A stretch of DNA of 14,159 nt from Nitrosospira multiformis ATCC 25196 (GTDB taxonomy: Bacteria > Pseudomonadota > Gammaproteobacteria > Burkholderiales > Nitrosomonadaceae), in assembly GCF_000196355.1 (NCBI RefSeq), contig NC_007617.1, positions 1-14,159 of the forward strand. Direction: 5' to 3'. Below the pieces are notes generated by a model. It saw only the letters and a list, made by a program, of their open reading frames with translations. It did not search any database and was not told where the DNA came from. The translations under genes were made by a program, and so were the position numbers. Shown here piece by piece: positions 1,517 through 14,086 of the stretch. Position 1 is the stretch's first letter. Each line of letters starts with the position of its first letter.

Positions 1517-1858
1517 TTAAGCGATAGCCAGCGTCAAGTGCCCGACTGGCTCGGTTGTTGGCTTTACCTTGATTTCGATGTCATACCCCAGGCGATTCAA
1601 GCAGTCCATCAGCTTACGCTCGGACAAACCGGTGAAGTCGCCACGCAGTAGCGCAGATACTTTAGGTTGCGGAATGCCCATCCGACGGCTGGCCTCTTCT
1701 TGAGTCAGACCACGTTTACGCACAGCTCGGGTGATTTCGATCACCAGGGCAGACTTGATCTTGAGTTTTTCGGCATTCGGCAAGCCCAGATCGGCAAAAA
1801 TGTTGCCGGAACTGGTCTCAGCCTCAATGCCTTCAACGATGCGCTTTTGCTTTTTCAT
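1517..1858 (-). CDS. XRE-family HTH antitoxin (HigA-like)
   Basis: The HTH segment is GLTQEEASRRMGIPQPKVSALLRG. The ORF-track start at 1876 is a TTG. The ATG at 1858 (MKKQKRIVEG...) is preceded by AAGGAG 7 nt upstream and is the more likely start. The gene lies downstream of, and overlaps, the toxin gene, which is the reversed HigBA order. Confidence 0.85.
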   Translation of the reverse strand: MKKQKRIVEGIEAETSSGNIFADLGLPNAEKLKIKSALVIEITRAVRKRGLTQEEASRRMGIPQPKVSALLRGDFTGLSERKLMDCLNRLGYDIEIKVKPTTEPVGHLTLAIA

Positions 1859-2219
1859 GTCGTAGCTCCTTTGCAAGTGCCTCGGCCACCTTCAGTCTGG
1901 CGCGGATAATATCTATGTCCTCCTTCGGCGTTGTGATTCCGCTCTTGCTCTTCTTCTGGAAGCAGTGCAGGACGAACACGGCTTCCTCGAATTTCACGGT
2001 ATAGACAGCGCGATAAGTCCCACCCGCATCATCTTCGACTACTTCCAAGACACCAGCGCCACTGAAGCCCTTGAGCACTTTGGCCGCGCCGTGTCGATCA
2101 CCGTGCTGTGCGAAATCCAGGGCGTGACCGAAAAATTTGCGTACCTTGGTCGGAAACACCATCAGATCTTTCTTACTGCTCCCGATCCAGACGAGTGATT
2201 TTTCTTCTTCATCAGTCAT
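1833..2219 (-). CDS. RelE/ParE-superfamily toxin of the phage Gp49-like (HigB-like) type
   Basis: 128 aa. The sequence SLVWIGSSKKDLMVFPTKVRKFFGHALDFAQHG...YRAVYTVKFEEAVFVLHCFQKKSKSGITTPKEDIDIIRARLK is typical of Gp49-like/HigB toxins. It is encoded immediately upstream of an XRE antitoxin. Confidence 0.85.
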   Translation of the reverse strand: MTDEEEKSLVWIGSSKKDLMVFPTKVRKFFGHALDFAQHGDRHGAAKVLKGFSGAGVLEVVEDDAGGTYRAVYTVKFEEAVFVLHCFQKKSKSGITTPKEDIDIIRARLKVAEALAKELRHEKAKAHR

Positions 2220-3426: not shown

Positions 3427-4659
3427 ATGGTATCTGACAAGAACGATGGGCCAAAATCCAAAGTAACTATGGCTTATGCCTTGGAATTGGTAGAGATCGA
3501 GGAGCAATTGGCAGCGCTGGAGCGTACGAATCAACGTCTCCAAGCAATGGCCGAGCGATCCTCGAACAATCCTGATCTTGAGCGCCGCAGAAATGAAATT
3601 ATCGACAAAGCAGCTCCGTTAGAACGACGTAGACAAGCAATCATTGCTGCGGAAGAGGCTGCCGCGGAAGTTTATGTCATGCACGGAGAAACTAGATCTA
3701 CTCCTAACTTATTTAGCGACATTCAGCCTGAATTAGGTTTCTTGGCCGATATTCAGAGCGAGGTCAAAAAAGTCGAAGAGGATAGGAGCAAAAAGCGGGA
3801 ACGATCCAAGCTACTGCCAGCTCGTTACACAAATCAGGATTTCTTTGTTGCAGATATCCTCGGCTATTCGCTCAAGGACGACCACGCCACAATGGAGGCC
3901 CCCGTTTTTTCACTTAAGACTCAGAAAGATCTCACTCCTTGGGAATGGACAAGTAAAGACGGTACAAAGCACATCGAGGTATCGCCTTCGGTCAAATATG
4001 GGCGAGCTACCCAGCATGACAAGGATATTTTGATCTTTGTTACCTCGCAAATGACGGAAGCCCTGAATCGTGAGCGGCCAGACACCCAAAGTCGGGCCGT
4101 GCGTTTTACCGTACATAATTATCTCGTGGCAACCAACAAACCTACAGGGGGGGTGGAATATCAACGACTTGAACGAGCACTGGATAGACTCAAGGGAACA
4201 ACGATTAAAACCGACATCAAGACTGGTAACAAGCGCGTTAAAGAAGCATTTGGCATTCTCGATTCTTGGGCAATCATTGAGCGTTCGTCAAGTGATGAAC
4301 GCATGATTGCTGTTGAAATCACCTTATCCAAGTGGCTTTATAACGCAATCCACGCACACGAAGTGCTAACGATCCATCCTGACTATTTTCGGTTACGCAA
4401 ACCCTTGGAGAGGCGTTTATACGAGTTAGCCAGAAAGCACTGTGGCAGCAAGCAGTCAAGCTGGAAAATCGGACTTGAATTACTACGGGAGAAGTGTGGG
4501 GCGCAGAGTCACATCCGCGCCTTCCGAAATCAGGTACAGGAGATCAGTAATGCTCATACACTGCCTGAATACCACTTGATCTACGAGCGGGAAGCAGATC
4601 AAGTTACTTTCTACGTTAAAAATCAACAGAAGCTCATCTCTTCTTATTTATGTCGCTGA
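3427..4659 (+). CDS. repA: Plasmid replication initiator (RepA/TrfA-like, replication initiator protein A family)
   Basis: 410 aa. The block NQDFFVADILGYSLKDDHATMEAPVFSLKTQKD...RFTVHNYLVATN...WLYNAI...YFRLRKPLERRLYELARKHCG resembles iteron-binding initiators. Iterons follow directly. The start is uncertain: ATG 3427 or ATG 3469, neither with a clear SD. Confidence 0.85.
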   Translation: MVSDKNDGPKSKVTMAYALELVEIEEQLAALERTNQRLQAMAERSSNNPDLERRRNEIIDKAAPLERRRQAIIAAEEAAAEVYVMHGETRSTPNLFSDIQPELGFLADIQSEVKKVEEDRSKKRERSKLLPARYTNQDFFVADILGYSLKDDHATMEAPVFSLKTQKDLTPWEWTSKDGTKHIEVSPSVKYGRATQHDKDILIFVTSQMTEALNRERPDTQSRAVRFTVHNYLVATNKPTGGVEYQRLERALDRLKGTTIKTDIKTGNKRVKEAFGILDSWAIIERSSSDERMIAVEITLSKWLYNAIHAHEVLTIHPDYFRLRKPLERRLYELARKHCGSKQSSWKIGLELLREKCGAQSHIRAFRNQVQEISNAHTLPEYHLIYEREADQVTFYVKNQQKLISSYLCR

Positions 4660-4769
4660 CGCTTAATTCGTTATATCGCTGACATTGTGGATTGACTCGT
4701 TATATCGCTGACACTTTCCTGTGGATTGACTCGTTATATCGCTGACGCGTGACTCGTTATATCGCTGAC
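4645..4769 (+). repeat. oriV iterons: four exact direct copies of TCGTTATATCGCTGAC plus one degenerate copy
   Basis: Exact copies at 4668-4683, 4697-4712, 4731-4746 and 4754-4769. Copies 2 and 3 extend to an identical 27-mer TGTGGATTGACTCGTTATATCGCTGAC (4686-4712 and 4720-4746). A 13/16 copy overlaps the repA stop (4645-4660). An AT-rich tract follows at about 4790-4860. Confidence 0.85.
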
Positions 4770-4883
4770 ACTCTATTCGCAAAGCACTATACTTTACAGT
4801 CACTTAATAGGTATATTTCCTACCGTAACACGCGCGCGTTTTTTAACTTATAAAATCTTTAACACCTCGCCCCCCACTCCAGC

Positions 4884-4892
4884 TGTGGATAA
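4884..4892 (-). promoter_or_regulatory. DnaA box, perfect consensus TTATCCACA
   Basis: The plus strand reads TGTGGATAA at 4884-4892. It lies just beyond the iterons and the AT-rich tract, the canonical position in theta-type plasmid origins. Confidence 0.6.
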
Positions 4893-5516
4893 CACATCTC
4901 CAGCAATTAAATTCCCAATTTAAAGGAATTTATCGACGCCCCCTGAAGGGGGCCAAAAGACCCCCTTCCAGTTTCACCTTTTGTACTTTGCCCGCTTGTG
5001 TTTCTCATCTTTTTCAAAAGATACAAAAGCCATCTTCCGAACCTTAAGCAGAGCATGAGGGCAATCCAGGTGGCTCAGCTGCCATAGTTCCTTAGCAGCT
5101 GACCTGAGCCTTACGGCTCACCCTCATGGGCACCAGGACCCGGACAAATCAGCCCCAGCCTGCAAGCAGGCTGGGAGCTTCAGCCGGGTTTCTGTGGAAA
5201 TTGCCCTTTGTCCATTCAGCTATCCCTTGCACGTCCTCAAAACCTGTCTTCAGGAGGAAGGGGCAAGGTGGAGCTGGGATTCATGCAGAAATACCCTTCA
5301 GATGCGTTCTCAAGGCTGTGGAGCGCATTTCTACCTCAAGCTGAAGGAAATCTATCTCTTTTCCTATTAAACGCTCCAAAGGGCTTTAAAAGCCTTTTTG
5401 TGAAAGACACTTTCCTGGAACAGCTGTTTTCGCCTTCAAGGCAGGGTCAAGGCGGGTGCCAAGCCCCCCGAGAGGGCATGGCCTTGAGGCTGCCTGAAGC
5501 GACACACGCTAAGACC

Positions 5517-5820: not shown

Positions 5821-6252
5821 TCAACCCTTCATTTTTTCTGCCAGCAGGGCATCGCCCTTGCGCTTCCACTGTGCTTTGCGCTCATCCTCAGGGGCTACCC
5901 TGGAGAGTTCCATGAGCGCGCCCAGGAGCTCTCCCCGATCCAGGAGCGGCATACCGGTTTTTGAATCCACCAGGCCTGCCAGGATCATCAGGCCTGCGGC
6001 GTTATAGAGCTCGCGGTCGCGTGCTTTTCGTGTTGCGAGCTTTTCCGCATTCACGATCCTGGCGGCATTGGCCCGTGCCTTCTGTGCACGTTCCGCTGCT
6101 TTTTCCGCGCGCACGAGTGCCAGAAGTTTGCGTTCATCCTCTGGCGTCCTGTCCGGCTTGTCTGCCAGCAGCAGCAATAGCCGCTGGTGGTCAGTGGGGT
6201 GTTTGAGTCCCCGCAAGTAAGCCAGCCGTCCCTTGAGCCATTCGTCCTGCAT
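5821..6252 (-). CDS. Mobilisation accessory protein (TraD/MobC-like relaxosome component)
   Basis: 143 aa, charged and helical. The segment RKARDRELYNAAGLMILAGLVD resembles the conserved core of TraD-type transfer accessory proteins. A strong SD, GAGGAGG, lies 4 nt upstream. The gene is divergent from mobA, with oriT in between. Confidence 0.6.
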   Translation of the reverse strand: MQDEWLKGRLAYLRGLKHPTDHQRLLLLLADKPDRTPEDERKLLALVRAEKAAERAQKARANAARIVNAEKLATRKARDRELYNAAGLMILAGLVDSKTGMPLLDRGELLGALMELSRVAPEDERKAQWKRKGDALLAEKMKG

Positions 6253-6335
6253 GGGGCCTCCTCATTGTTGAGAACCAGTCGATTGTAGCGGAAAACTTGG
6301 CAGCAGGCACAGACTGAAGTATCCTTGTAATACAC

Positions 6336-6386
6336 AAGGCGCGCTTAGTTGTTTCTTTGGATGGTAAGACCCTCATCCATAGAAAC
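6336..6386 (-). other. oriT (IncQ/RSF1010-like): 13-bp imperfect inverted repeat followed by a TAAGCGCGCC nick-region motif
   Basis: The minus strand reads GTTTCTATGGATG-agggtcttac-CATCCAAAGAAAC-aaC-TAAGCGCGCCTT. As I recall it, RSF1010 oriT is GTTTCTC-gaa-GAGAAAC-cgg-TAAGTGCG^CCCT. The site lies in the 199-bp gap between the divergent mob genes. Confidence 0.65.
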
Positions 6387-6451
6387 ACGCGAACAAGAAA
6401 AGCAAAGATCAGGCCGCTTCGCGGCCAAACAAACAATGGAGAACACCCGGC

Positions 6452-8053
6452 ATGGCAATCGCGCGCCTGAGCATGAAAGTGGGGAAAGCGGGCCGAGCGT
6501 GCCCGCATGCTGCCTACATCGTGCGCGCGGGGCAGCATGCCCGGCATCTTTCCCGGGGCGAGAGGCTCGAAGCGGTTGAAGCGGGCAACCTGCCGGCCTG
6601 GGCGCAACATGATCCGCTGCTTTTCTGGCAGATGGCGGATGCTTATGAGCGCAGCAACGGTACCACCTACCGGGAGATGGAGATTGCCCTGCCAAGGGAA
6701 CTCGATGCCGGGCAGCGGGCAGCGCTGGTGCGGGCATTCGTCGCCCAGGAGATCGGAGGCCGTCACGCGTACCAGTGGGCCATCCACACCCCTATCGCAG
6801 CGGATGGCCAAGCGCAGCCGCACGTCCACCTCATGTTCTCCGAGCGACAGGTGGATGGCATTGAGCGCGACCCGGAACAGTACTTCAAGCGCTACAACGC
6901 CAGGAATCCGGAGAAGGGCGGGGCGCGCAAGGGCTATGGGCCGCGTGCGGGCCAGACCCTGAGCCGGGCCGAGCGCGCAGCGGATCTGAAGGAATTGAGG
7001 GCCCGCTGGCAGGAGATGGCCAATACCCATCTTGAGCAGCTGGGGCACAGCGCGCGCATCGACATGCGCAGCCATGCAGAGCGCGGTACAGGTCTTCTTC
7101 CTGAGAAGAAGCAGCTGCCGAGCCAGTGGCGGGGGGAAGGGCGAGGGAACATCATCGAATTCCGCCAGGCGCGGGCGGCGCTCGTGCAAGCCCATGAGCA
7201 TATGCAGCAGGCGGTACCCGATGCGAAGGCCGAAGTCATCAGCCTGGAAGCTGAGCGGGAGCGACGGATACGGGATCGGGAGGAGCGGAGCCAGGCGGAG
7301 AGGCTGCGCATCGAGCGCATGACGAGCCGCGAGCTCAAAGCCGAGATCGAGCGGCTGCGGCCGCTATCAATCAAAGCCGCGGTTGATCGTCACCCGGAGG
7401 TGATGGCTGCGCGAAAGATCCATGCCTCCCTGTCGTATCAGATGCGGCAGGCGCAGGAAAAGATGCAGCGGGCCACGCTGCAAATGCACGACTGGCGCAG
7501 AGCCCATCCGCTACGGGCCAGGACGCACGACCTGGGACTGATCCCATCCAGTTACCTCATCGAGCGCGAGCAGACCAGGGAAGAAGCCCGGTTGCGGGCT
7601 GAGGATCTTAAGCCCGGGGTCGACGATGCGAGAAGGCGGGCCGAGGATATTGCCGCCGACATCGGACAGCGCATGGAGATCGAACAGAAGCCAGTGCGCG
7701 AGCAGGTGGCCAAGCTTGAGCGCATCTGGCAGCAGAAGGCTAACCAGGAGTTGGAGGTGCTGCGGCAAGCAAAGAAACTAGACTGGGCCATATCAGAGTT
7801 CAAGAGCCACGCCATCAGCCGTGCACTGAAAGTTCCCAGTTACAGCGACACCGGCACACAGTGGAAAGCGCTGCCGGAGAGCGCACGTGAAGCGATAGAC
7901 CGGTTCAATACCCTTCCAAAGGACGAACGGGCGCGGGAGCTGGAAAGGATGCGGGAGTATTTCAGGCAGCAGGGGCCGAAAGCTGTGGAGGGACTGGTGC
8001 AGGAAATGAGTCAGGGGAAAAGCAGGAATAGGGGTCAGGGATGGGAGCTTTGA
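6452..8053 (+). CDS. mobA: MobA/MobL-family (MOBQ) relaxase
   Basis: 533 aa. The N-terminus MAIARLSMKVGKAGRACPHAAYIVRAG carries the catalytic-Tyr context. The histidine triad region is HTPIAADGQAQPHVHLMFSE. The C-terminal half is a long charged coiled coil, and no primase-like segment is evident. Confidence 0.9.
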   Translation: MAIARLSMKVGKAGRACPHAAYIVRAGQHARHLSRGERLEAVEAGNLPAWAQHDPLLFWQMADAYERSNGTTYREMEIALPRELDAGQRAALVRAFVAQEIGGRHAYQWAIHTPIAADGQAQPHVHLMFSERQVDGIERDPEQYFKRYNARNPEKGGARKGYGPRAGQTLSRAERAADLKELRARWQEMANTHLEQLGHSARIDMRSHAERGTGLLPEKKQLPSQWRGEGRGNIIEFRQARAALVQAHEHMQQAVPDAKAEVISLEAERERRIRDREERSQAERLRIERMTSRELKAEIERLRPLSIKAAVDRHPEVMAARKIHASLSYQMRQAQEKMQRATLQMHDWRRAHPLRARTHDLGLIPSSYLIEREQTREEARLRAEDLKPGVDDARRRAEDIAADIGQRMEIEQKPVREQVAKLERIWQQKANQELEVLRQAKKLDWAISEFKSHAISRALKVPSYSDTGTQWKALPESAREAIDRFNTLPKDERARELERMREYFRQQGPKAVEGLVQEMSQGKSRNRGQGWEL

Positions 8054-8116: not shown

Positions 8117-9049
8117 TCAGTTAAGAGAAATGCTGTAAGAACCAGCAACATGACTAATAAAATCGAGCTCTACATCTGTGCGGGTATAAATCCCACCATC
8201 TCCACATGGCTTACTAGCACCACGAAACGCCCTAGAGGTGAGGGCAGCAACTTTCCTTTGAGGGCCTAGGTCTATATAGGCGGGACCGCCACTATCCCCA
8301 TTACAACTATCGAAACCAAGGCCTCCAGCAAGGATTTCAACATCAGATTCAAATCCATACTTGATTTCGAGAGCGTCTAAATCATCATTAGGATCTTTTC
8401 TAATGCCAATTATGTCTACTTGCACATGCCTTTTTTCCCCAAATCCTCTCGTGCTATAGACATCTGAGTTTCCAAAACCTACTAGTGAAAGTTGTTGAGA
8501 GGATTTCAATTCATTGGTAGTAGCTAAAGGACAGGGGGGAGTTGTGGCAGGTTTTTTTAGGATTATTACTGATATATCATGAAGCCCTGTTTGAAGATAC
8601 TTTGGATGGGCAACACTAATTTTTGCAGGGATTACTTCTGCATCTTTTAAATGGTTCATGCTTTCGCATGACAAAGCAACAACTGAAGCCGTAACTCTTG
8701 GTGGTTGATGACAATGGGCAGCTGTAAGAACGATTTGGGGATGTACGAGTACCCCGGTACAGTTCCATTGAACTATTCCGTTTGGCAGTGACTCTCCTAT
8801 AAGACAACAATCTTTATATTCTCCTTTGCTTACAGGTGTACCACCGATAATACGTGCAGTTGCCAGAGCCAGCTGAATAGCATGATTATTTCTAAGGGCT
8901 CGATCTAAGGGGGCTTCGTTCATATAGGAAGTCAAAAGGCTTCCTAGAGCATTAAATTTATCAGCCAATCTTCTGTGAGCTTCCATTGGATCAAAAGACT
9001 CCTCTTTTCCAGTACAACCTGCACTGGTGCAGCCAAAACGCTGGTTCAT
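8117..9049 (-). CDS. Trypsin-fold (S1 family) serine protease zymogen, no signal peptide
   Basis: Catalytic triad contexts are LTAAHC, HDISVIIL and GDSGGP. An Asp occupies the S1-pocket position (GFDSCNGDSGGP). A canonical activation junction, ATAR-IIGGTPV, follows a hydrophilic pro-region of about 65 aa. The ORF-track start at 9061 is a TTG. The ATG at 9049 has GGAG 7 nt upstream and is preferred. Confidence 0.9.
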   Translation of the reverse strand: MNQRFGCTSAGCTGKEESFDPMEAHRRLADKFNALGSLLTSYMNEAPLDRALRNNHAIQLALATARIIGGTPVSKGEYKDCCLIGESLPNGIVQWNCTGVLVHPQIVLTAAHCHQPPRVTASVVALSCESMNHLKDAEVIPAKISVAHPKYLQTGLHDISVIILKKPATTPPCPLATTNELKSSQQLSLVGFGNSDVYSTRGFGEKRHVQVDIIGIRKDPNDDLDALEIKYGFESDVEILAGGLGFDSCNGDSGGPAYIDLGPQRKVAALTSRAFRGASKPCGDGGIYTRTDVELDFISHVAGSYSISLN

Positions 9050-9064
9050 CTTATTCTCCAATTG

Positions 9065-9358
9065 TTATTGTCTTCCAGGGGATGGTGCTAATAAGCCCAC
9101 TAGACCGCCGACAGCTGCTGTTGATAGGGGAAGCAGAAGCTTTATGAATTCTTCTGAAGCAAACATTGCGAGAGGAAAAATGAGGATTATGGCAGCGCTC
9201 AATGCGCTTACGACTATCCTATATATCCATTTATCGGTTTCTAGAGGGGATTTAAGCTCCTCAATCTTCTCAAGAATTGGCTTTTTTTCTTGAGCGTCAA
9301 TAGGAGATTCCTCTACGAGTGCTCGGATTCTATCAAGTTGTTGAATATCCCTGTTCAT
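9065..9358 (-). CDS. Small membrane protein: hydrophilic helical N-terminus plus two C-terminal TM helices
   Basis: 97 aa. The N-terminal 43 residues are charged (MNRDIQQLDRIRALVEESPIDAQEKKPILEKIEELK). Two hydrophobic spans follow, WIYRIVVSALSAAIILIFPLAMFA and FIKLLLPLSTAAVGGLVGLLAP. GGGAG lies upstream. The stop is 15 nt before the protease ATG. No family recognised. Confidence 0.7.
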   Translation of the reverse strand: MNRDIQQLDRIRALVEESPIDAQEKKPILEKIEELKSPLETDKWIYRIVVSALSAAIILIFPLAMFASEEFIKLLLPLSTAAVGGLVGLLAPSPGRQ

Positions 9359-9504
9359 TTGGCATTAACTCCCGTTAATTCAATGGTTTTATTTTTATTT
9401 ATAGATGAAAGAATAGGCAAAGTAAGAAAAATGCATGTCCGACAGCAAAATTTTCCATTTTAGAGCGGCACTGATTCTGATTCGGGTCGCTACTATGGGA
9501 CACA

Positions 9505-10182
9505 TCACTTTAATTCCTTCGAAACACAAACCATATACTTGTCTATCCGCACAAGTTTGTCTTCAATATCTTTCGTTGACTCAAAGCAATTTCTTAAAAG
9601 AGTCTGCTTAGTTAGAAGCTTAGCTCTCATAATGCGGCCATGCAATTTATGCTCCTGCAGCTTTAATAGAAAGTTGTTTTGGAGATCGTCATTTTTGAGC
9701 ATAGATGCACATATACTCCCCAAAGAAGGGGGTTGTAAGCTTACCAAGTACTCAAGCTGTTTCTTGGCCGATGCAAGCTCGGTTTGATTACTGGTTTGAT
9801 TACTGCGCTGGTTCCTATTCCTTTCTACTTCAGCTATCTGGTCGAGTACCTTAGCGCGGGTTTTGCTTATTAGCTTAGCGAGCTCCTCATCTGGAGCTCC
9901 ACCCGTTCTGTTCCGATCTAGCGCTACAACGCAGGCATCAATAAGGGTTCCCGAGGCGTCATCGTCAAGAAAATTAGCATGAATTTGAGCTACCACTTCC
10001 GGGGAGAGGGTGGAATCTCCATTCTGAATTAAGCCAAGTGAGTCACCTGCAACCGGCCCAGACTGAGCTGTCGTAACTGAAGATTGGAACTCAAGCAATA
10101 CTAGATTAGTTACAACTTCATCGAGCTTTTTGCCAGCAGTTGAAATAGCTTTCTTTTTTTTCTCCTTTGATGTGCTCCCCAT
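9505..10182 (-). CDS. Hypothetical protein (225 aa from the native ATG), predicted soluble and helical
   Basis: A long ORF in low-GC DNA. The ORF-track start (10194) lies inside the IS inverted repeat. The first host-derived ATG is at 10182 (MGSTSKEKKKK...). The gene contains a 12-bp tandem duplication at 9781-9804 encoding NQTSNQT. No family recognised. Confidence 0.6.
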   Translation of the reverse strand: MGSTSKEKKKKAISTAGKKLDEVVTNLVLLEFQSSVTTAQSGPVAGDSLGLIQNGDSTLSPEVVAQIHANFLDDDASGTLIDACVVALDRNRTGGAPDEELAKLISKTRAKVLDQIAEVERNRNQRSNQTSNQTELASAKKQLEYLVSLQPPSLGSICASMLKNDDLQNNFLLKLQEHKLHGRIMRAKLLTKQTLLRNCFESTKDIEDKLVRIDKYMVCVSKELK

Positions 10183-10235
10183 AAAACGTGCCATCTGGAA
10201 TCTAGTAAAGTTCGTTTTTCGAGAGGAGAACGGAC

Positions 10236-10499
10236 GTGAAGAAGCGATTTACGGATGAACAAATTATTGGATTTCTGAAGCAGGCAGATGGAGGCATTCC
10301 GGTCAGGGAATTGTGCCGCCAGCATGGTTTTTCCGATGCGTCGTTTTACACCTGGCGTGCCAGGTTTGGTGGGATGACAGTATCGGATGCCAGGCGGTTG
10401 CGAGATCTTGAAGCAGAGAATGCTCAGCTCAAGAAGCTTTTAGCCGAGTCGCTTCTTGATGCTCAAGCCTTGAAGGTTGCTTTGGGCCGAAAGCATTAA
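10236..10499 (+). CDS. IS3-family transposase OrfA (HTH/leucine zipper)
   Basis: GTG start. MKKRFTDEQIIGFLKQADGGIPVRELCRQHGFSDASFYTWRARFGGM...LEAENAQLKKLLAE is the characteristic IS3/IS407-group OrfA sequence. Confidence 0.9.
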   Translation: MKKRFTDEQIIGFLKQADGGIPVRELCRQHGFSDASFYTWRARFGGMTVSDARRLRDLEAENAQLKKLLAESLLDAQALKVALGRKH

Positions 10500-10525
10500 C
10501 TCCACAGGCCAGGCGTGAGGCAGTA

Positions 10526-11356
10526 ATGGCGATGCTTGAGCAGACGAACGTTTCCGAACGCCGTGCCTGCCTGCTTGTGGATATATCACGTACGGTATTG
10601 CACTACATGTCCAAGGTGCGGCTGGAGAATGAGCAACTGCAAGGTCGAATGGTTGAGTTGGCCTCTGAACGCCGTCGTTTTGGTTATCGACGCATTCATG
10701 CCCTGCTGCGGCGTGAGGGTGTTGAAGCCAATCACAAACGCATCTTTCGCCTTTACCAGGCTGCCGGGTTGGCAGTAAAGCGCCGACGCAGGCGAGGGGG
10801 CGTAGCAGTTGAACGTGAGCAATTGGCATTGCCAAGCCAGCCCAACGAGGTATGGTCAATGGATTTCATCTGTGATGCACTGGCGAATGGCAGACGCATC
10901 AAGGTATTGACCATCGTTGATGACTTCACCAAGGAATCCATTGATCTGGTAGCTGAACATGGCATTTCGGGACAACATGTCGTGCGCGTATTGGAGCAAG
11001 CTTCACAGTTTCGTGGGTTGCCCTTGGCCATTCGCACCGATCAGGGACCGGAGTTCACCAGCAAGGCACTGGATCAGTGGGCTTATAAGCATGGTGTCCA
11101 GCTCAAATTGATTGAGGCGGGCAAGCCGACGCAAAATGCATATATTGAGAGCTTCAACGGTCGGTTTCGGGATGAGTGCCTGAACGATCACTGGTTTACC
11201 AGCCTGGCTGAGGCACGGATTCGGATATCAGCCTGGCGGCGCGACTACAACGAGCATCGACCGCACAGTGCACTAAATTACCTAACCCCGGCAGAATTTG
11301 CAGCCAACTGCCGCAGGCAAGAAGAAATAAACGGCTGTGAAAGAAATGGAAGCTAA
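10526..11356 (+). CDS. IS3-family transposase OrfB (DDE catalytic domain), probably expressed as an OrfAB fusion by -1 frameshift
   Basis: The frame is -1 relative to orfA and is open from 10460, so the frameshift window is 10460-10499. DDE contexts are VWSMDF, IRTDQGPEFTS and YIESFNGRFRDECLN. Confidence 0.9.
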   Translation: MAMLEQTNVSERRACLLVDISRTVLHYMSKVRLENEQLQGRMVELASERRRFGYRRIHALLRREGVEANHKRIFRLYQAAGLAVKRRRRRGGVAVEREQLALPSQPNEVWSMDFICDALANGRRIKVLTIVDDFTKESIDLVAEHGISGQHVVRVLEQASQFRGLPLAIRTDQGPEFTSKALDQWAYKHGVQLKLIEAGKPTQNAYIESFNGRFRDECLNDHWFTSLAEARIRISAWRRDYNEHRPHSALNYLTPAEFAANCRRQEEINGCERNGS

Positions 11357-11393
11357 TTTATAACTGAACTTTGCTAGAACGCCCCTGGCACTA

Positions 11394-12149
11394 CTACCGG
11401 GGGCACATCACCTTAGCTTGATCATCGGTTTCTGGTAGCTCGACCGCCTCTTGCAGTTGCTGTGATGCGTCCTTAACTGCAACACGTGCTTCATCTAGTT
11501 TCTTTGGATCCGTGCCTTTTGTGGAGGCGCTGCTACCTAGAGCAGCAAGTTTTTGCCCAAATGCTCCAGCAGCAATTTCAGAGGCCAACATGCTAGCCAT
11601 TGTCTTGTCGAAACGCGCTAGCATGAGCGTATAGCTCGTGTCACTAATGGCACCGTTTTGGAAGGCTTCGCAAGCGCGATACATTTTGTCCCGCAGCAAT
11701 TGCACCGTCGATAGTCGCGCTCCCAATTGGGCGATGCTTGATGCGTAGGACGATCCAACTGATCCCGATCCGCTAATGTTCTTTATTTCCGAGGCCTTTA
11801 TGTCAACCTTTGCAGCAGCAGTGAAGGCAGCTGATATTGCTTGAGCAACGTCAGGACTAGGTTCGGCACAAATGATACGGGTAGGGTGATTTTTAATTAC
11901 ATGATCGGTGTTGGCTGAAGAGGTATCACTTGAACCATCACTTTTACCGCTAGATCTCCTAATGCCGACATCTGCTTTTGTGTTAATGATGGCACGTTGT
12001 TTAGCATCTGTGATTAGAGATGGATTACCGCCCGGCGTATTGTTAGAATCGAGGGCTTCCGTATAGTTAATGCGTCGTTCTTGTCGATCCAAAAATGCGC
12101 ATCCTGTAGACAAAAGCGGAACTAAGCAGATAATTAGACCTATTTTCAT
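11394..12149 (-). CDS. Putative lipoprotein of unknown function
   Basis: 251 aa. The N-terminus MKIGLIICLVPLLSTGC looks like a signal peptide with a lipobox-like Cys17. An S/G/T-rich linker and an alanine-rich helical C-terminal half follow. SD GAGG lies 8 nt upstream. The TAG stop is doubled (TAGTAG) and abuts the IS right end. Confidence 0.7.
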   Translation of the reverse strand: MKIGLIICLVPLLSTGCAFLDRQERRINYTEALDSNNTPGGNPSLITDAKQRAIINTKADVGIRRSSGKSDGSSDTSSANTDHVIKNHPTRIICAEPSPDVAQAISAAFTAAAKVDIKASEIKNISGSGSVGSSYASSIAQLGARLSTVQLLRDKMYRACEAFQNGAISDTSYTLMLARFDKTMASMLASEIAAGAFGQKLAALGSSASTKGTDPKKLDEARVAVKDASQQLQEAVELPETDDQAKVMCPR

Positions 12150-12559
12150 TATTAGAACCTCAATTATAGAGAGAGGGATTAATCAGTCTTCTTGGAATTA
12201 GCAACAGTGCAGATTGTGAATTCCGATCCATCATCGACCCGCATCACTTTTTTCGTAAAAATTCTTTCTTGCGACCCCCATTAAAATTAAATTAGCAATA
12301 TCCTTCTGAAGGATTCAATTCTTATATTTCCTTTTAAATTCATACCCTGATAGTCTTATTTATAGGTTTTTTGGCTTTATTTTGCTTGTTATTTATCGTT
12401 TCGTTTATAGTAACGGGCATTGCAAAAAGTCTTCCCTTCACTACACAAATCTAGAGCATGTGCAAAGCAGGGATATAAGACTACCGTTTGTAAAGACCGC
12501 GCCCTACCTCCTGCTGGTGCTGGTTGTGTCAGCCCCGCTTTCGAACTCTGCTACTCAAA

Positions 12560-12597
12560 TTGACGAAAGTGTCTATAGTGGTATACGCTAATAAGCG
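12560..12597 (+). promoter_or_regulatory. Candidate promoter/operator of the xre-immA operon: TTGACG-N17-ATACGCTAATAAGCG
   Basis: The -35-like TTGACG is at 12560-12565. The 15-mer ATACGCTAATAAGCG (12583-12597) recurs exactly at 13717-13731. It lies immediately upstream of the SD GGAGGA. Confidence 0.5.
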
Positions 12598-12614
12598 GAG
12601 GAGCGGAAATTATT

Positions 12615-12950
12615 ATGACTACGATACGACAAGACCATGTTACTTTTGGTAGCTACATTGCGGAAGCGCGCAAGAAGCTATCGATGAGCCAGAAGGAGCT
12701 GGCGGCCCGTATCCTACGGGAAGAAGATGGACAGCCCATCTCTCCCCAATATCTCAATGATATCGAACGCGACCGCCGGAGCCCCACATCCGATCATTTA
12801 ATCCAGCAGTTCGCAAAGGTTCTCCAGATAGATGCGGATTACCTGCACTACCTCTCTGGTAAATTACCCGAGGAAATCAGGCAGCGGAATCTTTCCCAAG
12901 ATGATGTGAAAGCCGCTTTCATGGCCTTCCGTAAACCCAATAAAAAATAA
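12615..12950 (+). CDS. XRE-family HTH transcriptional regulator
   Basis: 111 aa. FGSYIAEARKKLSMSQKELAARI...PISPQYLNDIERDRRSPTSDHLIQQFAKVL matches the Cro/CI-type HTH_3 pattern. Confidence 0.85.
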   Translation: MTTIRQDHVTFGSYIAEARKKLSMSQKELAARILREEDGQPISPQYLNDIERDRRSPTSDHLIQQFAKVLQIDADYLHYLSGKLPEEIRQRNLSQDDVKAAFMAFRKPNKK

Positions 12951-12957
12951 TAATTTC

Positions 12958-13674
12958 ATGGTTGCTTACATACGCGACCTGACTGGTCGTTTTCAGCAGC
13001 GTCCCCACTATAAACCCGAGGAACTGGATCGCGAATGCGAATCCATCATCACGGGCTTTCTCAAAAGTCTCTACGGTAATGTTCGCTATCCGGTCGAAAC
13101 AGAAGATCTGAAAAAATTGATCGAGCGGGATGCGGATGATCTTGATGTATACGCCGACCTTTCAATTTACGGTGCGGAAGTGGAGGGAGTTACAGAGTTC
13201 TATCCTGGCCGTAAACCAATAGTCCGGATCGCGGCAGAGCTGACTGAGGATGAGCGCCGGGAGAACCGATTGCGAACAACCTTGACCCATGAATATGGCC
13301 ATGTCCACTTTCATGCTTACCTCTGGGAAATGGAGCCTCTGCAGGCGGACTTGCTTCGGCGGCAACCTAATCGCGATAAGATCATCTGCAAGCGCGACAC
13401 GATGATCGACGCGACCCATACGGACTGGATGGAGTGGCAGGCCGGTTATGTTTGCGGAGCGATTCTGATGCCTAAAACGGCCGTAGTAGGGCTATGCCGT
13501 TCGTTTGTCGAACAGCGTGGTTTATATAGTGCGGTTTCAACCCGAACGTATCACGGTCAGGACCTGATTGCTAGCGTTATCAGTTCTTTCCAGGTATCGG
13601 AAGACGCAGCCCGCGTACGCCTTATAAAGCTCGGTCTATTGACTGAGTCTGTTTCTACGCCATCCCTGTTTTAA
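12958..13674 (+). CDS. ImmA/IrrE-family zinc metallopeptidase (COG2856-type)
   Basis: 238 aa with the HEXXH motif in TLTHEYGHVHFH. It starts 7 nt after the xre stop, the classical XRE-COG2856 gene pair. Confidence 0.85.
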   Translation: MVAYIRDLTGRFQQRPHYKPEELDRECESIITGFLKSLYGNVRYPVETEDLKKLIERDADDLDVYADLSIYGAEVEGVTEFYPGRKPIVRIAAELTEDERRENRLRTTLTHEYGHVHFHAYLWEMEPLQADLLRRQPNRDKIICKRDTMIDATHTDWMEWQAGYVCGAILMPKTAVVGLCRSFVEQRGLYSAVSTRTYHGQDLIASVISSFQVSEDAARVRLIKLGLLTESVSTPSLF

Positions 13675-13693
13675 TTAATTGCTCGCAAATCTA

Positions 13694-13734
13694 TTGCAGA
13701 GCTTACACGTACTGTGATACGCTAATAAGCGTAT
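13694..13734 (+). promoter_or_regulatory. Second copy of the promoter/operator: TTGCAG-N17-ATACGCTAATAAGCGTAT
   Basis: The architecture matches 12560-12597. Here the motif is a perfect palindrome, ATACGCT-aata-AGCGTAT (13717-13734). It lies 65 nt upstream of the DUF3892-like ATG. Confidence 0.5.
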
Positions 13735-13798
13735 CGGCGGATTAGCGGTTTTGCGATGGTCGCACCTCTACCCCGGTCATTCATATAGGAGATATAAA

Positions 13799-14086
13799 AT
13801 GGCAACTAAGCATGAAGTGAAGTGCATTAATAAAACTGACCGTCCTAATCCTCACGAACGTATTCGAGCGATTGGGGGAGTGAATGCAGATGGGACAAAT
13901 TGGAAATTAAGCCAGCAAGATGCAATTCGGGGGATTGAGGATGGAAAATGGAGCTTTTACGTATCAGTACGTGGCCAGATCGTGAATGTAATTATTGGCA
14001 TTAGCCGATATGGTAATAAGTATCTAAAAACAGAAGCTGATGGAGAGCAGCCGAACAATCTTCTTTCCCTGTATGAGTGTGCTTAA
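13799..14086 (+). CDS. Small conserved protein resembling the DUF3892 family
   Basis: 95 aa from the ATG at 13799, with AGGAGA 7 nt upstream; the ORF-track start at 13751 is a TTG. From memory, the pattern VKCINKTDRPNPHERIRAIGG...WKLSQQDAIRGIEDGKWSFYV...YLKTEADGEQPNNLLSLYEC matches DUF3892. This was not checked by any search. Confidence 0.7.
   Translation: MATKHEVKCINKTDRPNPHERIRAIGGVNADGTNWKLSQQDAIRGIEDGKWSFYVSVRGQIVNVIIGISRYGNKYLKTEADGEQPNNLLSLYECA

Follow-up and report, generated by a model that had tools for sequence, protein, structure and literature searches.

A leaderless trypsin-type zymogen and a small two-helix membrane protein encoded side by side on a Nitrosospira plasmid: a possible protease-plus-effector conflict cassette

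What use does a small plasmid have for a trypsin that carries no export signal, and for the small membrane protein encoded directly before it? The DNA analysed here (the window) is the whole 14,159-bp plasmid of Nitrosospira multiformis ATCC 25196. On its minus strand, a gene for a 97-amino-acid (97-aa) protein with two transmembrane (TM) helices precedes a gene for a 310-aa protease of the S1A (trypsin) type. A first-pass annotation had proposed that the two proteins form a membrane-acting effector pair licensed by proteolysis or, alternatively, that the small protein is a holin-like export route for the protease. The reading favoured below, tentatively, is that the cassette is a rare plasmid-borne variant of a protease-plus-effector conflict module.

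The protease gene is read from an ATG at 9049 to a stop codon at 8117 (Table 1). An in-frame TTG 12 nt upstream of the ATG is a less probable start, given that the ATG has a GGAGA ribosome-binding site 6 nt in front of it. The Pfam Trypsin profile (PF00089) matches residues 67-296 with 74.2 bits against a cut-off of 20.6 (E=1.7e-20), covering profile positions 1-218 of 220. The motifs that had been taken to mark an S1 zymogen, namely the triad contexts TAAHC, HDIS and GDSGGP, the S1 Asp247 and the Arg-IIGG activation junction, are all present and were verified codon by codon. Ser253 lies in GDSGGP and Asp247, the equivalent of Asp189, in DSCNGDSGGP; Asp252 corresponds to Asp194, the pairing partner of the newly formed N-terminus. 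Across 117 aligned homologues the junction residues are kept almost without exception (R66 in 115, I67 in 116, G69 and G70 in all), and the cysteines at the His-loop (C97/C113) and Ser-loop (C249/C282) positions, likewise described as pairs in the first-pass annotation, occur in every sequence. Because these features are near-invariant among the homologues, they are family traits and not products of chance.

The AlphaFold2 model of the protease has a mean predicted local distance difference test score (pLDDT) of 89.5. A Foldseek search of the PDB returned 1,055 matches at E<=0.001, of which the best 50 are all S1A proteases; urokinase, kallikrein, plasmin and tryptase head the list, with target-normalised TM-scores of 0.69-0.82 for nearly all of the best 50. 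The nearest solved proteins by sequence are VesC and VesB of Vibrio, which align with residues 64-299. The protein thus has the profile, triad and fold of an S1A protease together with the sequence of a trypsin-type zymogen, and these features support a leaderless, zymogen-type enzyme predicted to cleave after Arg or Lys.

The pro-region had been described as about 65 residues without a signal sequence; it spans 66 residues, has no hydrophobic stretch and is modelled as two helices, residues 21-43 and 50-67, at a pLDDT of 87-95. Across the family its median length is 69 residues, with two cysteines in 97 of 109 members. The highest 10-residue hydropathy value in the first 40 residues has a family median of 0.44, and the 117-homologue alignment contains no hydrophobic N-terminus or signal peptide apart from a single outlier, probably an over-extended start. 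Sec or Tat signals among the homologues had been named beforehand as evidence that would count against an effector pair, and the homologues lack them. The vicinal Cys81-Cys82, which is specific to the family, and the Cys pair of the pro-region make up a candidate tether or metal site, their pairing being presumed from the sequence; the extra Cys81 leaves the protease body with an odd number of invariant cysteines.

The 97-aa protein is a real gene product. Its open reading frame (ORF) extends from 9358 to 9065, ending in a TAA at 9067-9065, 15 nt upstream of the protease gene, and the earlier description of a charged helical head and two TM helices agrees with an all-alpha AlphaFold2 model (helices 2-17, 22-65 and 69-90) with two hydrophobic spans. 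The head, with 9 Lys/Arg in 47 residues, is predicted to be helical and exposed, and the second TM helix (TM2) is rich in Gly, Ala and Ser. The protein carries the motifs TDKWIYRIVV and AAVGGLVGLLAPSP, which correspond to the strongly conserved TDKWIYRIVV and GSAAVGxLxGLLAPSP of the family alignment, where D42, Y46, R47, I48-V50, A81, A82, G84, L86, G88, L89, L90, P92 and P94 are invariant. The family numbers 1,518 representative clusters at E<=0.001 and is mostly chromosomal; the best 150 of the 1,518 matches are short stand-alone proteins of 80-188 aa, mostly about 100-115 aa. No match was found in Pfam, PADLOC, NCBIfam, PHROGs or the PDB, the best Pfam score (DUF2721, 13.9 bits) falling below threshold.

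The two genes are very likely an operon. A terminator scan of the interval between them revealed nothing beyond chance, and the protease ribosome-binding site lies within the short spacer (Table 1). The cassette has a G+C content of 43% versus 63.5% for the adjacent mobA, which ends 63 nt past the protease stop codon. The AT-rich region upstream of the 97-aa gene may hold a promoter of the cassette's own, although a promoter scan found no sigma-70 consensus match there. An Rfam scan gave nothing above chance.

Table 1. Coordinates of the cassette, its functional sites and neighbouring features on the 14,159-bp plasmid
Feature	Position	Strand	Basis and remarks
AT-rich 146-nt region 5' of 97-aa gene	9359..9504	-	GGGAG ribosome-binding site
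97-aa small membrane protein gene	9065..9358	-	ORF; charged helical head of ~45 residues and two hydrophobic helices
15-nt spacer CAATTGGAGAATAAG	9050..9064	-	protease ribosome-binding site GGAGA within
310-aa leaderless S1A (trypsin-type) protease precursor gene	8117..9049	-	ORF, Pfam PF00089, AlphaFold2, Foldseek
Pro-region, residues 1-66, P1 Arg66 at end	8852..9049	-	Cys pair C7/C12, then two helices
Predicted activation junction R66/I67-I68-G69-G70	8840..8854	-	codon-verified
Vicinal Cys81-Cys82, protease body	8804..8809	-	C81 117/117, C82 83/117; family-specific
Catalytic His112 (TAAHC)	8714..8716	-	codon-verified; kept in 116/117 homologues
Catalytic Asp158 (HDIS)	8576..8578	-	codon-verified; kept in 117/117
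DSCNGDS block: S1 Asp247, C249, Asp252, catalytic Ser253	8291..8311	-	all kept in 117/117
RelE/ParE-type toxin and HTH antitoxin pair	1517-2219	-	match on Pseudomonas plasmids
229-aa gene	9505-10194	-	
IS3-family element	10236-11356	+	two overlapping transposase ORFs
251-aa lipoprotein gene	11394-12149	-	
XRE-type HTH gene	12615-12950	+	
M78 (ImmA/IrrE-like) peptidase gene	12958-13674	+	
DUF3892 gene	13751-14086	+	3' of M78 peptidase gene

That the two genes belong together is indicated by a second plasmid. The closest protease homologue (P0002, 65% identity) is encoded on a circular TrfA/ParA/MobA plasmid of ~8.7 kb that was recovered three times (L172-L174), and directly 5' of it on L172 is a 98-aa gene; no known protein is closer to the 97-aa protein than its product (53% identity). 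The gene order is the same on all three copies as on the Nitrosospira plasmid, the L172 spacer AATAGGAGAATATT measures 14 nt, and the ribosome-binding site GGAGAAT is common to both plasmids. The operon-like pairing proposed earlier therefore has a second instance, with its order, spacing and ribosome-binding site, on an unrelated replicon. The protease genes share 69% DNA identity over 641 nt, whereas the two backbones have in common only short protein segments at 35-42% identity; because the backbones are far less alike than the cassette, the cassette is common to otherwise divergent replicons, and shared plasmid ancestry as the sole cause of the conserved pair was judged unlikely. Since the nearest known relative of each gene lies in the other pair, it can be argued that the pair moves and is selected together. 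Among PLSDB plasmids, the cassette DNA and the 97-aa protein have no match, and the protease has two homologues only, both of them nuclease fusions.

Beyond this one plasmid the pairing is rare. The protease-side survey comprised 80 genomic loci of protease relatives and four from protein look-ups, which were searched out to 6 kb with a profile hidden Markov model (HMM) of the 97-aa family. No member of that family was found in any of these 84 loci, no trypsin gene in any of 87 loci of the 97-aa family, and no two-TM relative, by tblastn, in the later-added loci L175-L177, which carry the close protease relative P0004. The claim that the 97-aa protein is the protease's only close partner accordingly fails for the family as a whole: conserved pairing was rejected with the one plasmid excepted, and co-conservation, whose absence had been named as a sign against the effector pair, is largely wanting. 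The gene before that of another close relative, P0003, encodes a 142-aa protein bearing a Peptidase_S74 chaperone-like domain, and P0004 has no two-TM gene in the 310 nt upstream of it.

The L172 plasmid carries more than the pair. Outside its replication, partition, mobilisation and integrase backbone it holds, besides the two-TM and protease genes, only unannotated ORFs of 89 and 207 aa and two Cys-rich genes (4343-4594 and 4604-4918; 83 and 104 aa) downstream of the protease homologue. In the P0004 contigs a 105-aa homologue of the 104-aa Cys-rich protein likewise follows the protease (L175:1298-1615). These proteins are Ala/Gly-rich and hydrophobic, with six cysteines in the C-terminal half of the 104-105-aa form and an Arg just before a conserved part that begins WNP and is rich in Cys. 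They have no Pfam or PADLOC match, and may be protease-processed toxins or bacteriocin-like peptides. The Cys-rich genes are absent from the viral contigs and from the Nitrosospira plasmid, where the position of the mobA end leaves none after the protease.

By homology, the protease belongs to a large and widespread leaderless family of roughly 800 homologues that spans Acidobacteriota, Bacteroidota, Actinomycetota, Planctomycetota and others. The commonest immediate neighbour of its stand-alone members is a serpin without a signal peptide, found directly downstream at ten distinct loci with differing flanks, spread over several phyla and drawn from Rhizobium, Pyrinomonadaceae, Geodermatophilaceae/Modestobacter and metagenomes. 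These loci are L003, L012, L015, L022, L024, L025, L026, L062, L184 and the P0014 contig, with the protease at ~6001-6900 in most of them; no description of such a trypsin-serpin unit was found in the literature searched. On the Nitrosospira plasmid mobA takes the place of a downstream serpin, and none is present in the available DNA of the plasmid clade (the Nitrosospira plasmid, P0002, P0003 and P0004).

An Endonuclease_NS domain was detected in 18 protease-family loci by BLAST with the domain, mostly fused N-terminally to a Cys-helix linker and the trypsin, and often with a lamin-tail domain (LTD) at the end. Like the partner serpins, these fusions start without a leader. The trypsin of the Nitrosospira plasmid is 35-50% identical to their protease part and resembles them in its Cys-plus-helix linker and R/IVGG-type junction, and this homology explains why stand-alone 310-aa proteins are labelled 'endonuclease G'. 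Full fusions of 730-860 aa occur at L036, L038, L042, L047 (5092-7356), L048, L051, L055, L059, L060 and L067; none has a signal peptide, and in most of those inspected the sequence begins with MA(R/Q/T)LPY...PYDP, at 0-19 residues from the called start, and ends in a C-terminal Cys ([AE]DPC in 9/10 inspected). Caspase-like genes are present in at least six protease-family loci and CHAT or TPR-CHAT genes in eight; three loci have an M14 carboxypeptidase and one has an alpha/beta hydrolase. None of the 87 control loci of the two-TM family contains any of these genes, a serpin or Endonuclease_NS. At L029:2576-5971, from a metagenome-assembled genome of an uncultured Caulobacter, a 1,131-aa LodA-like lysine-epsilon-oxidase with a haem-oxygenase-like domain lies 11 nt upstream of a stand-alone protease. 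Taken together, the serpin, caspase, CHAT and nuclease-fusion associations of the protease family would fit the logic of biological conflict. No experimental study of this leaderless, zymogen-like S1A family was found in the literature searched. On viral contigs neither the protease nor the 97-aa protein has a close relative, the protease having distant matches only (27% identity); with no PHROG match either, a phage origin of the cassette was rejected.

The 97-aa family keeps different company. The upstream gene in 37 of 88 loci encodes a signal-peptide protein of ~171 aa that matches DUF2914 weakly; still further upstream, ten loci have a Zn-dependent phospholipase C, and housekeeping genes follow downstream. 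This usual operon can be seen in L095-L171 (for example L095:4264-4794 and L111:1714-2664), and some loci also hold a ~142-aa lipoprotein-like gene. The secreted DUF2914-like, lipoprotein-like and phospholipase C neighbours suggest an envelope-related role for the family.

How might the two proteins work together? In a conflict module of the kind favoured here, the 97-aa product would sit in the inner membrane by a two-helix hairpin, its helical head in the cytoplasm, and would have been recruited before the protease where other members of the protease family usually have a serpin or nuclease partner. The protease would be synthesised in the cytoplasm in an inactive precursor form, its two-helix pro-region ending at Arg66 before Ile-Ile-Gly-Gly, and would act as the switch; activation in trans by cleavage after Arg66 is proposed because this residue suits the enzyme's own S1 Asp247. 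Most likely the small protein would be the substrate, clipping of its Lys/Arg-rich cytoplasmic head freeing a membrane-damaging hairpin, or it might instead serve as a membrane anchor or sensor for the protease. The pair would then give the plasmid a sensor-less module for suicide, addiction or competition. Of the effector pair first proposed for this locus, what stands is the leaderless zymogen, the operon, one further plasmid pair and the conflict-type neighbours of the protease family; what falls is co-conservation, the assignment to the Trypco proteins and the likeness to holins. In its barest form, a sensor-less 'protease plus latent pore' death module in which an auto-activating trypsin clips the head and the hairpin permeabilises the membrane, the idea is quite unlikely.

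Several observations weigh against a conflict module. The pairing is rare in both surveys, and two of the four closest protease relatives (P0003 and P0004) lack a two-TM gene in the available DNA. The usual setting of the 97-aa family, among DUF2914-like, phospholipase C and housekeeping genes, is not of the conflict type. No sensor or trigger is encoded: as the first-pass annotation had remarked, there is no STAND or other nucleoside triphosphatase (NTPase) sensor on the 14-kb plasmid, ParA being its sole NTPase. Defence models match the cassette only through generic protease-domain entries. The invariant cysteines at canonical disulfide positions and the extra cysteines are as expected of an extracytoplasmic enzyme, which the VesB/VesC relationship and the nuclease/LTD fusions would suit as well. 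Finally, the Cys-rich genes of L172 raise the prospect that the Nitrosospira cassette may be part of a larger unit.

The alternative that survives best, though it is doubtful, is that there is no functional coupling at all and that two unrelated cargo genes became adjacent and co-transcribed on one plasmid lineage. The protease would then work by itself, for instance as a self-activating peptidase, intracellular or released, and the two-TM protein would have the function of its ~1,500 chromosomal relatives, whatever that is. In the great majority of cases each family is found without the other, the protease family swaps partners freely (serpin, nuclease, S74-like protein, Cys-rich peptides), and a single assembly event could explain the only two instances known. 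This explanation fits less well with the persistence of the pair, since neither gene is broken although the two pairs have diverged to 53-65% identity, their spacing and ribosome-binding site were retained while the backbones diverged far more or were exchanged, and the nearest known relative of each gene lies in the other pair.

An unlikely alternative is an export or bacteriocin-type cassette in which the protease acts outside the cytoplasm and the two-TM protein is a non-Sec exit, an anchor or an immunity protein. In the fuller L172 form the protease would mature the Cys-rich peptides after Arg (...TGER/WNP...), and the Nitrosospira plasmid would keep only the first two genes. The invariant disulfide-position cysteines, with Cys81 and the pro-region pair, speak for it, as does the proximity to VesC and VesB, which are secreted. 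Endonuclease_NS and LTD domains, with which relatives of the protease are fused, are in bacteria typical of extracellular enzymes. Small mobilisable plasmids often carry genes for toxin, immunity and release, and export would be in keeping with this usual cargo; the Cys-rich pair among the non-backbone genes of L172 and the 105-aa homologue after the protease in the P0004 contigs can be read in the same way. Yet no family member has a signal peptide or recognisable export signal, and the Cys-rich genes are missing from the Nitrosospira plasmid although both cassette genes are intact there. The holin-like exit envisaged in the first-pass annotation found no echo: the 97-aa protein has no holin match in PHROGs or Pfam, no BFVD structure match at E<=0.001 and no family member on viral contigs, and there is no lysin gene near the cassette. 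Its family is mostly chromosomal and lies beside proteins with their own signal peptides. The partner serpins are leaderless too, which counts against export but is still compatible with a secreted enzyme and a cytoplasmic guard.

A role for the two-TM protein as an inhibitor or sensor that replaces the serpin, sequestering the zymogen at the membrane until envelope stress releases it, is very improbable: the plasmid clade lacks the serpin that is the commonest partner elsewhere, and TM2 is Gly/Ala/Ser-rich like the EACC1 helix proposed as a membrane sensor (PMC7159879), but the analysis gave no support for a two-TM-protease interaction, P0003 and P0004 show neither serpin nor two-TM gene in the available DNA, and the conserved motifs of the two-TM family predate any link to a protease.

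The remainder of the plasmid encodes a resolvase, a RelE/ParE-helix-turn-helix (HTH) toxin-antitoxin pair, ParA with a small partner, a replication protein and MobA on the one side, and on the other the 229-aa gene, an IS3-family insertion element, a lipoprotein gene, an XRE-HTH/M78 peptidase pair and a DUF3892 gene. The toxin-antitoxin pair is 75.6% identical in DNA to pairs on many Pseudomonas plasmids and is the sole PLSDB nucleotide match in the first 8 kb. The 229-aa gene was considered as a third member of the cassette and rejected. With the lipoprotein gene it is a two-gene unit independent of the protease cassette: on L178, a 208-kb metagenomic contig, the homologues of the two (68% and 47% identity) adjoin with a 4-nt overlap. 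On the Nitrosospira plasmid the IS3-family element splits the lipoprotein gene from the 229-aa gene; a default-seed search for terminal inverted repeats of the element gave none. The L178 homologue has nothing that corresponds to the first ~23 codons of the 229-aa ORF. The XRE-type HTH and M78 genes are separated by 7 nt and have weak PADLOC matches to CapH and CapP, regulators of CBASS; they could be damage-responsive regulators of a plasmid cargo gene.

Protease-licensed effectors are now experimentally established in bacterial immunity, as Pepco, EACC1, the gasdermins and LypABC demonstrate. Against this background the leaderless S1A family is notable for its structured pro-region, for an Arg-Ile junction that fits its own specificity and for a cytoplasmic serpin as its commonest neighbour, and it is arguably of more interest than the rare pairing. 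The plasmid pair is a compact system for testing the family: two genes, ~1.3 kb and no sensor, bearing on self-cleavage, on disulfide state without an export signal and on the small protein as a substrate. Were the latent-pore reading true, ~1,500 uncharacterised small membrane proteins would become latent pore formers, and serpin-guarded leaderless trypsins a general bacterial executioner protease, analogous to the caspases that act on gasdermins. Should the pair turn out to be inert or its members unrelated, the family would be better approached through the serpin-trypsin unit or the nuclease-trypsin-LTD fusions.

How does the cassette compare with systems already described? VesB and VesC of Vibrio cholerae are zymogens exported by a type II system, with signal peptides and extra C-terminal domains. 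The protease here resembles them as a bacterial trypsin-type S1A enzyme, the match over residues 64-299 including the activation junction, and differs in that its family is leaderless and has a much longer, structured pro-region. Class II phage holins and SLATT two-TM effectors resemble the 97-aa protein in size, in the two-TM hairpin and in a charged soluble segment. The resemblance stops there, since Pfam, PHROGs, BFVD and viral contigs gave no match, there is no endolysin or nucleotide-signalling partner, and the 97-aa family is mostly chromosomal.

The closest computational precedent is the NucA-peptidase 'System 3', for which activation by a proteolytic cascade that deploys a nuclease was predicted (Kaur, Burroughs, Iyer & Aravind 2020, eLife, PMC7159879). 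Some of its trypsins are fused to TM segments, the system is mostly alphaproteobacterial, and a membrane-sensor role was proposed in the same work for the small-residue-rich TM helix of EACC1. The protease here shares with System 3 a clade in which fusion to Endonuclease_NS occurs (family HMM, tblastn). It differs in the lack of a nuclease domain, EAD1 or STAND component on the plasmid, in that the TM element is a separate, unrelated protein, and in its multi-phylum family. No Endonuclease_NS was found on the plasmid by domain BLAST, or by a Pfam scan of the cassette and of the genes from 9505 to 14086, and the locus is therefore not filed as a NucA-trypsin system. By description, an intracellular likeness exists in LypC, the trypsin-NucA fusion of the CARD-NLR-like system LypABC of Caulobacter, in which protease activity is needed for lysis and the nuclease is dispensable (Nat Microbiol 2026, PMC13236601). 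There too a trypsin-like protease is linked to a NucA-type endonuclease, but in the reverse domain order (trypsin, then nuclease) and working with an NLR-like ATPase pair.

In mechanism, the favoured reading comes nearest to Pepco (the former Trypco1/Trypco2) and EACC1, each a small latent membrane effector released as a pore former by one cleavage by a neighbouring protease, as shown experimentally (Evans et al., bioRxiv 10.1101/2025.11.14.688446). The first-pass annotation had linked the 97-aa protein to Trypco, then regarded as uncharacterised, a statement that this work has overtaken. The link itself does not hold: the protein falls below all Pfam and PADLOC thresholds, the presence of Trypco models in the Pfam copy being unconfirmed, and matches nothing in NCBIfam or PHROGs. 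Pepco, of 117 aa, forms a beta-barrel, and EACC1 combines a single TM helix with alpha+beta extensions (10.1101/2025.11.14.688446), whereas the 97-aa protein is modelled as an all-alpha two-TM hairpin with no sequence match to either. A Trypco/Pepco, EACC1, SLATT or holin identity was rejected for want of any profile, structure or viral match. The proteases differ as well: those of Pepco and EACC1 are fused to sensors (Avs, STAND, FGE), while the protease here stands alone with a zymogen pro-region, no VMAP, STAND/Avs or FGE sensor being fused or adjacent to it on the 14-kb plasmid, and the gene downstream of the two-TM gene encodes a trypsin and not the caspase of the EACC1-caspase system. 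What is new is a protease-plus-small-membrane-protein module that joins a known protease clade to an uncharacterised two-TM family on two plasmids.

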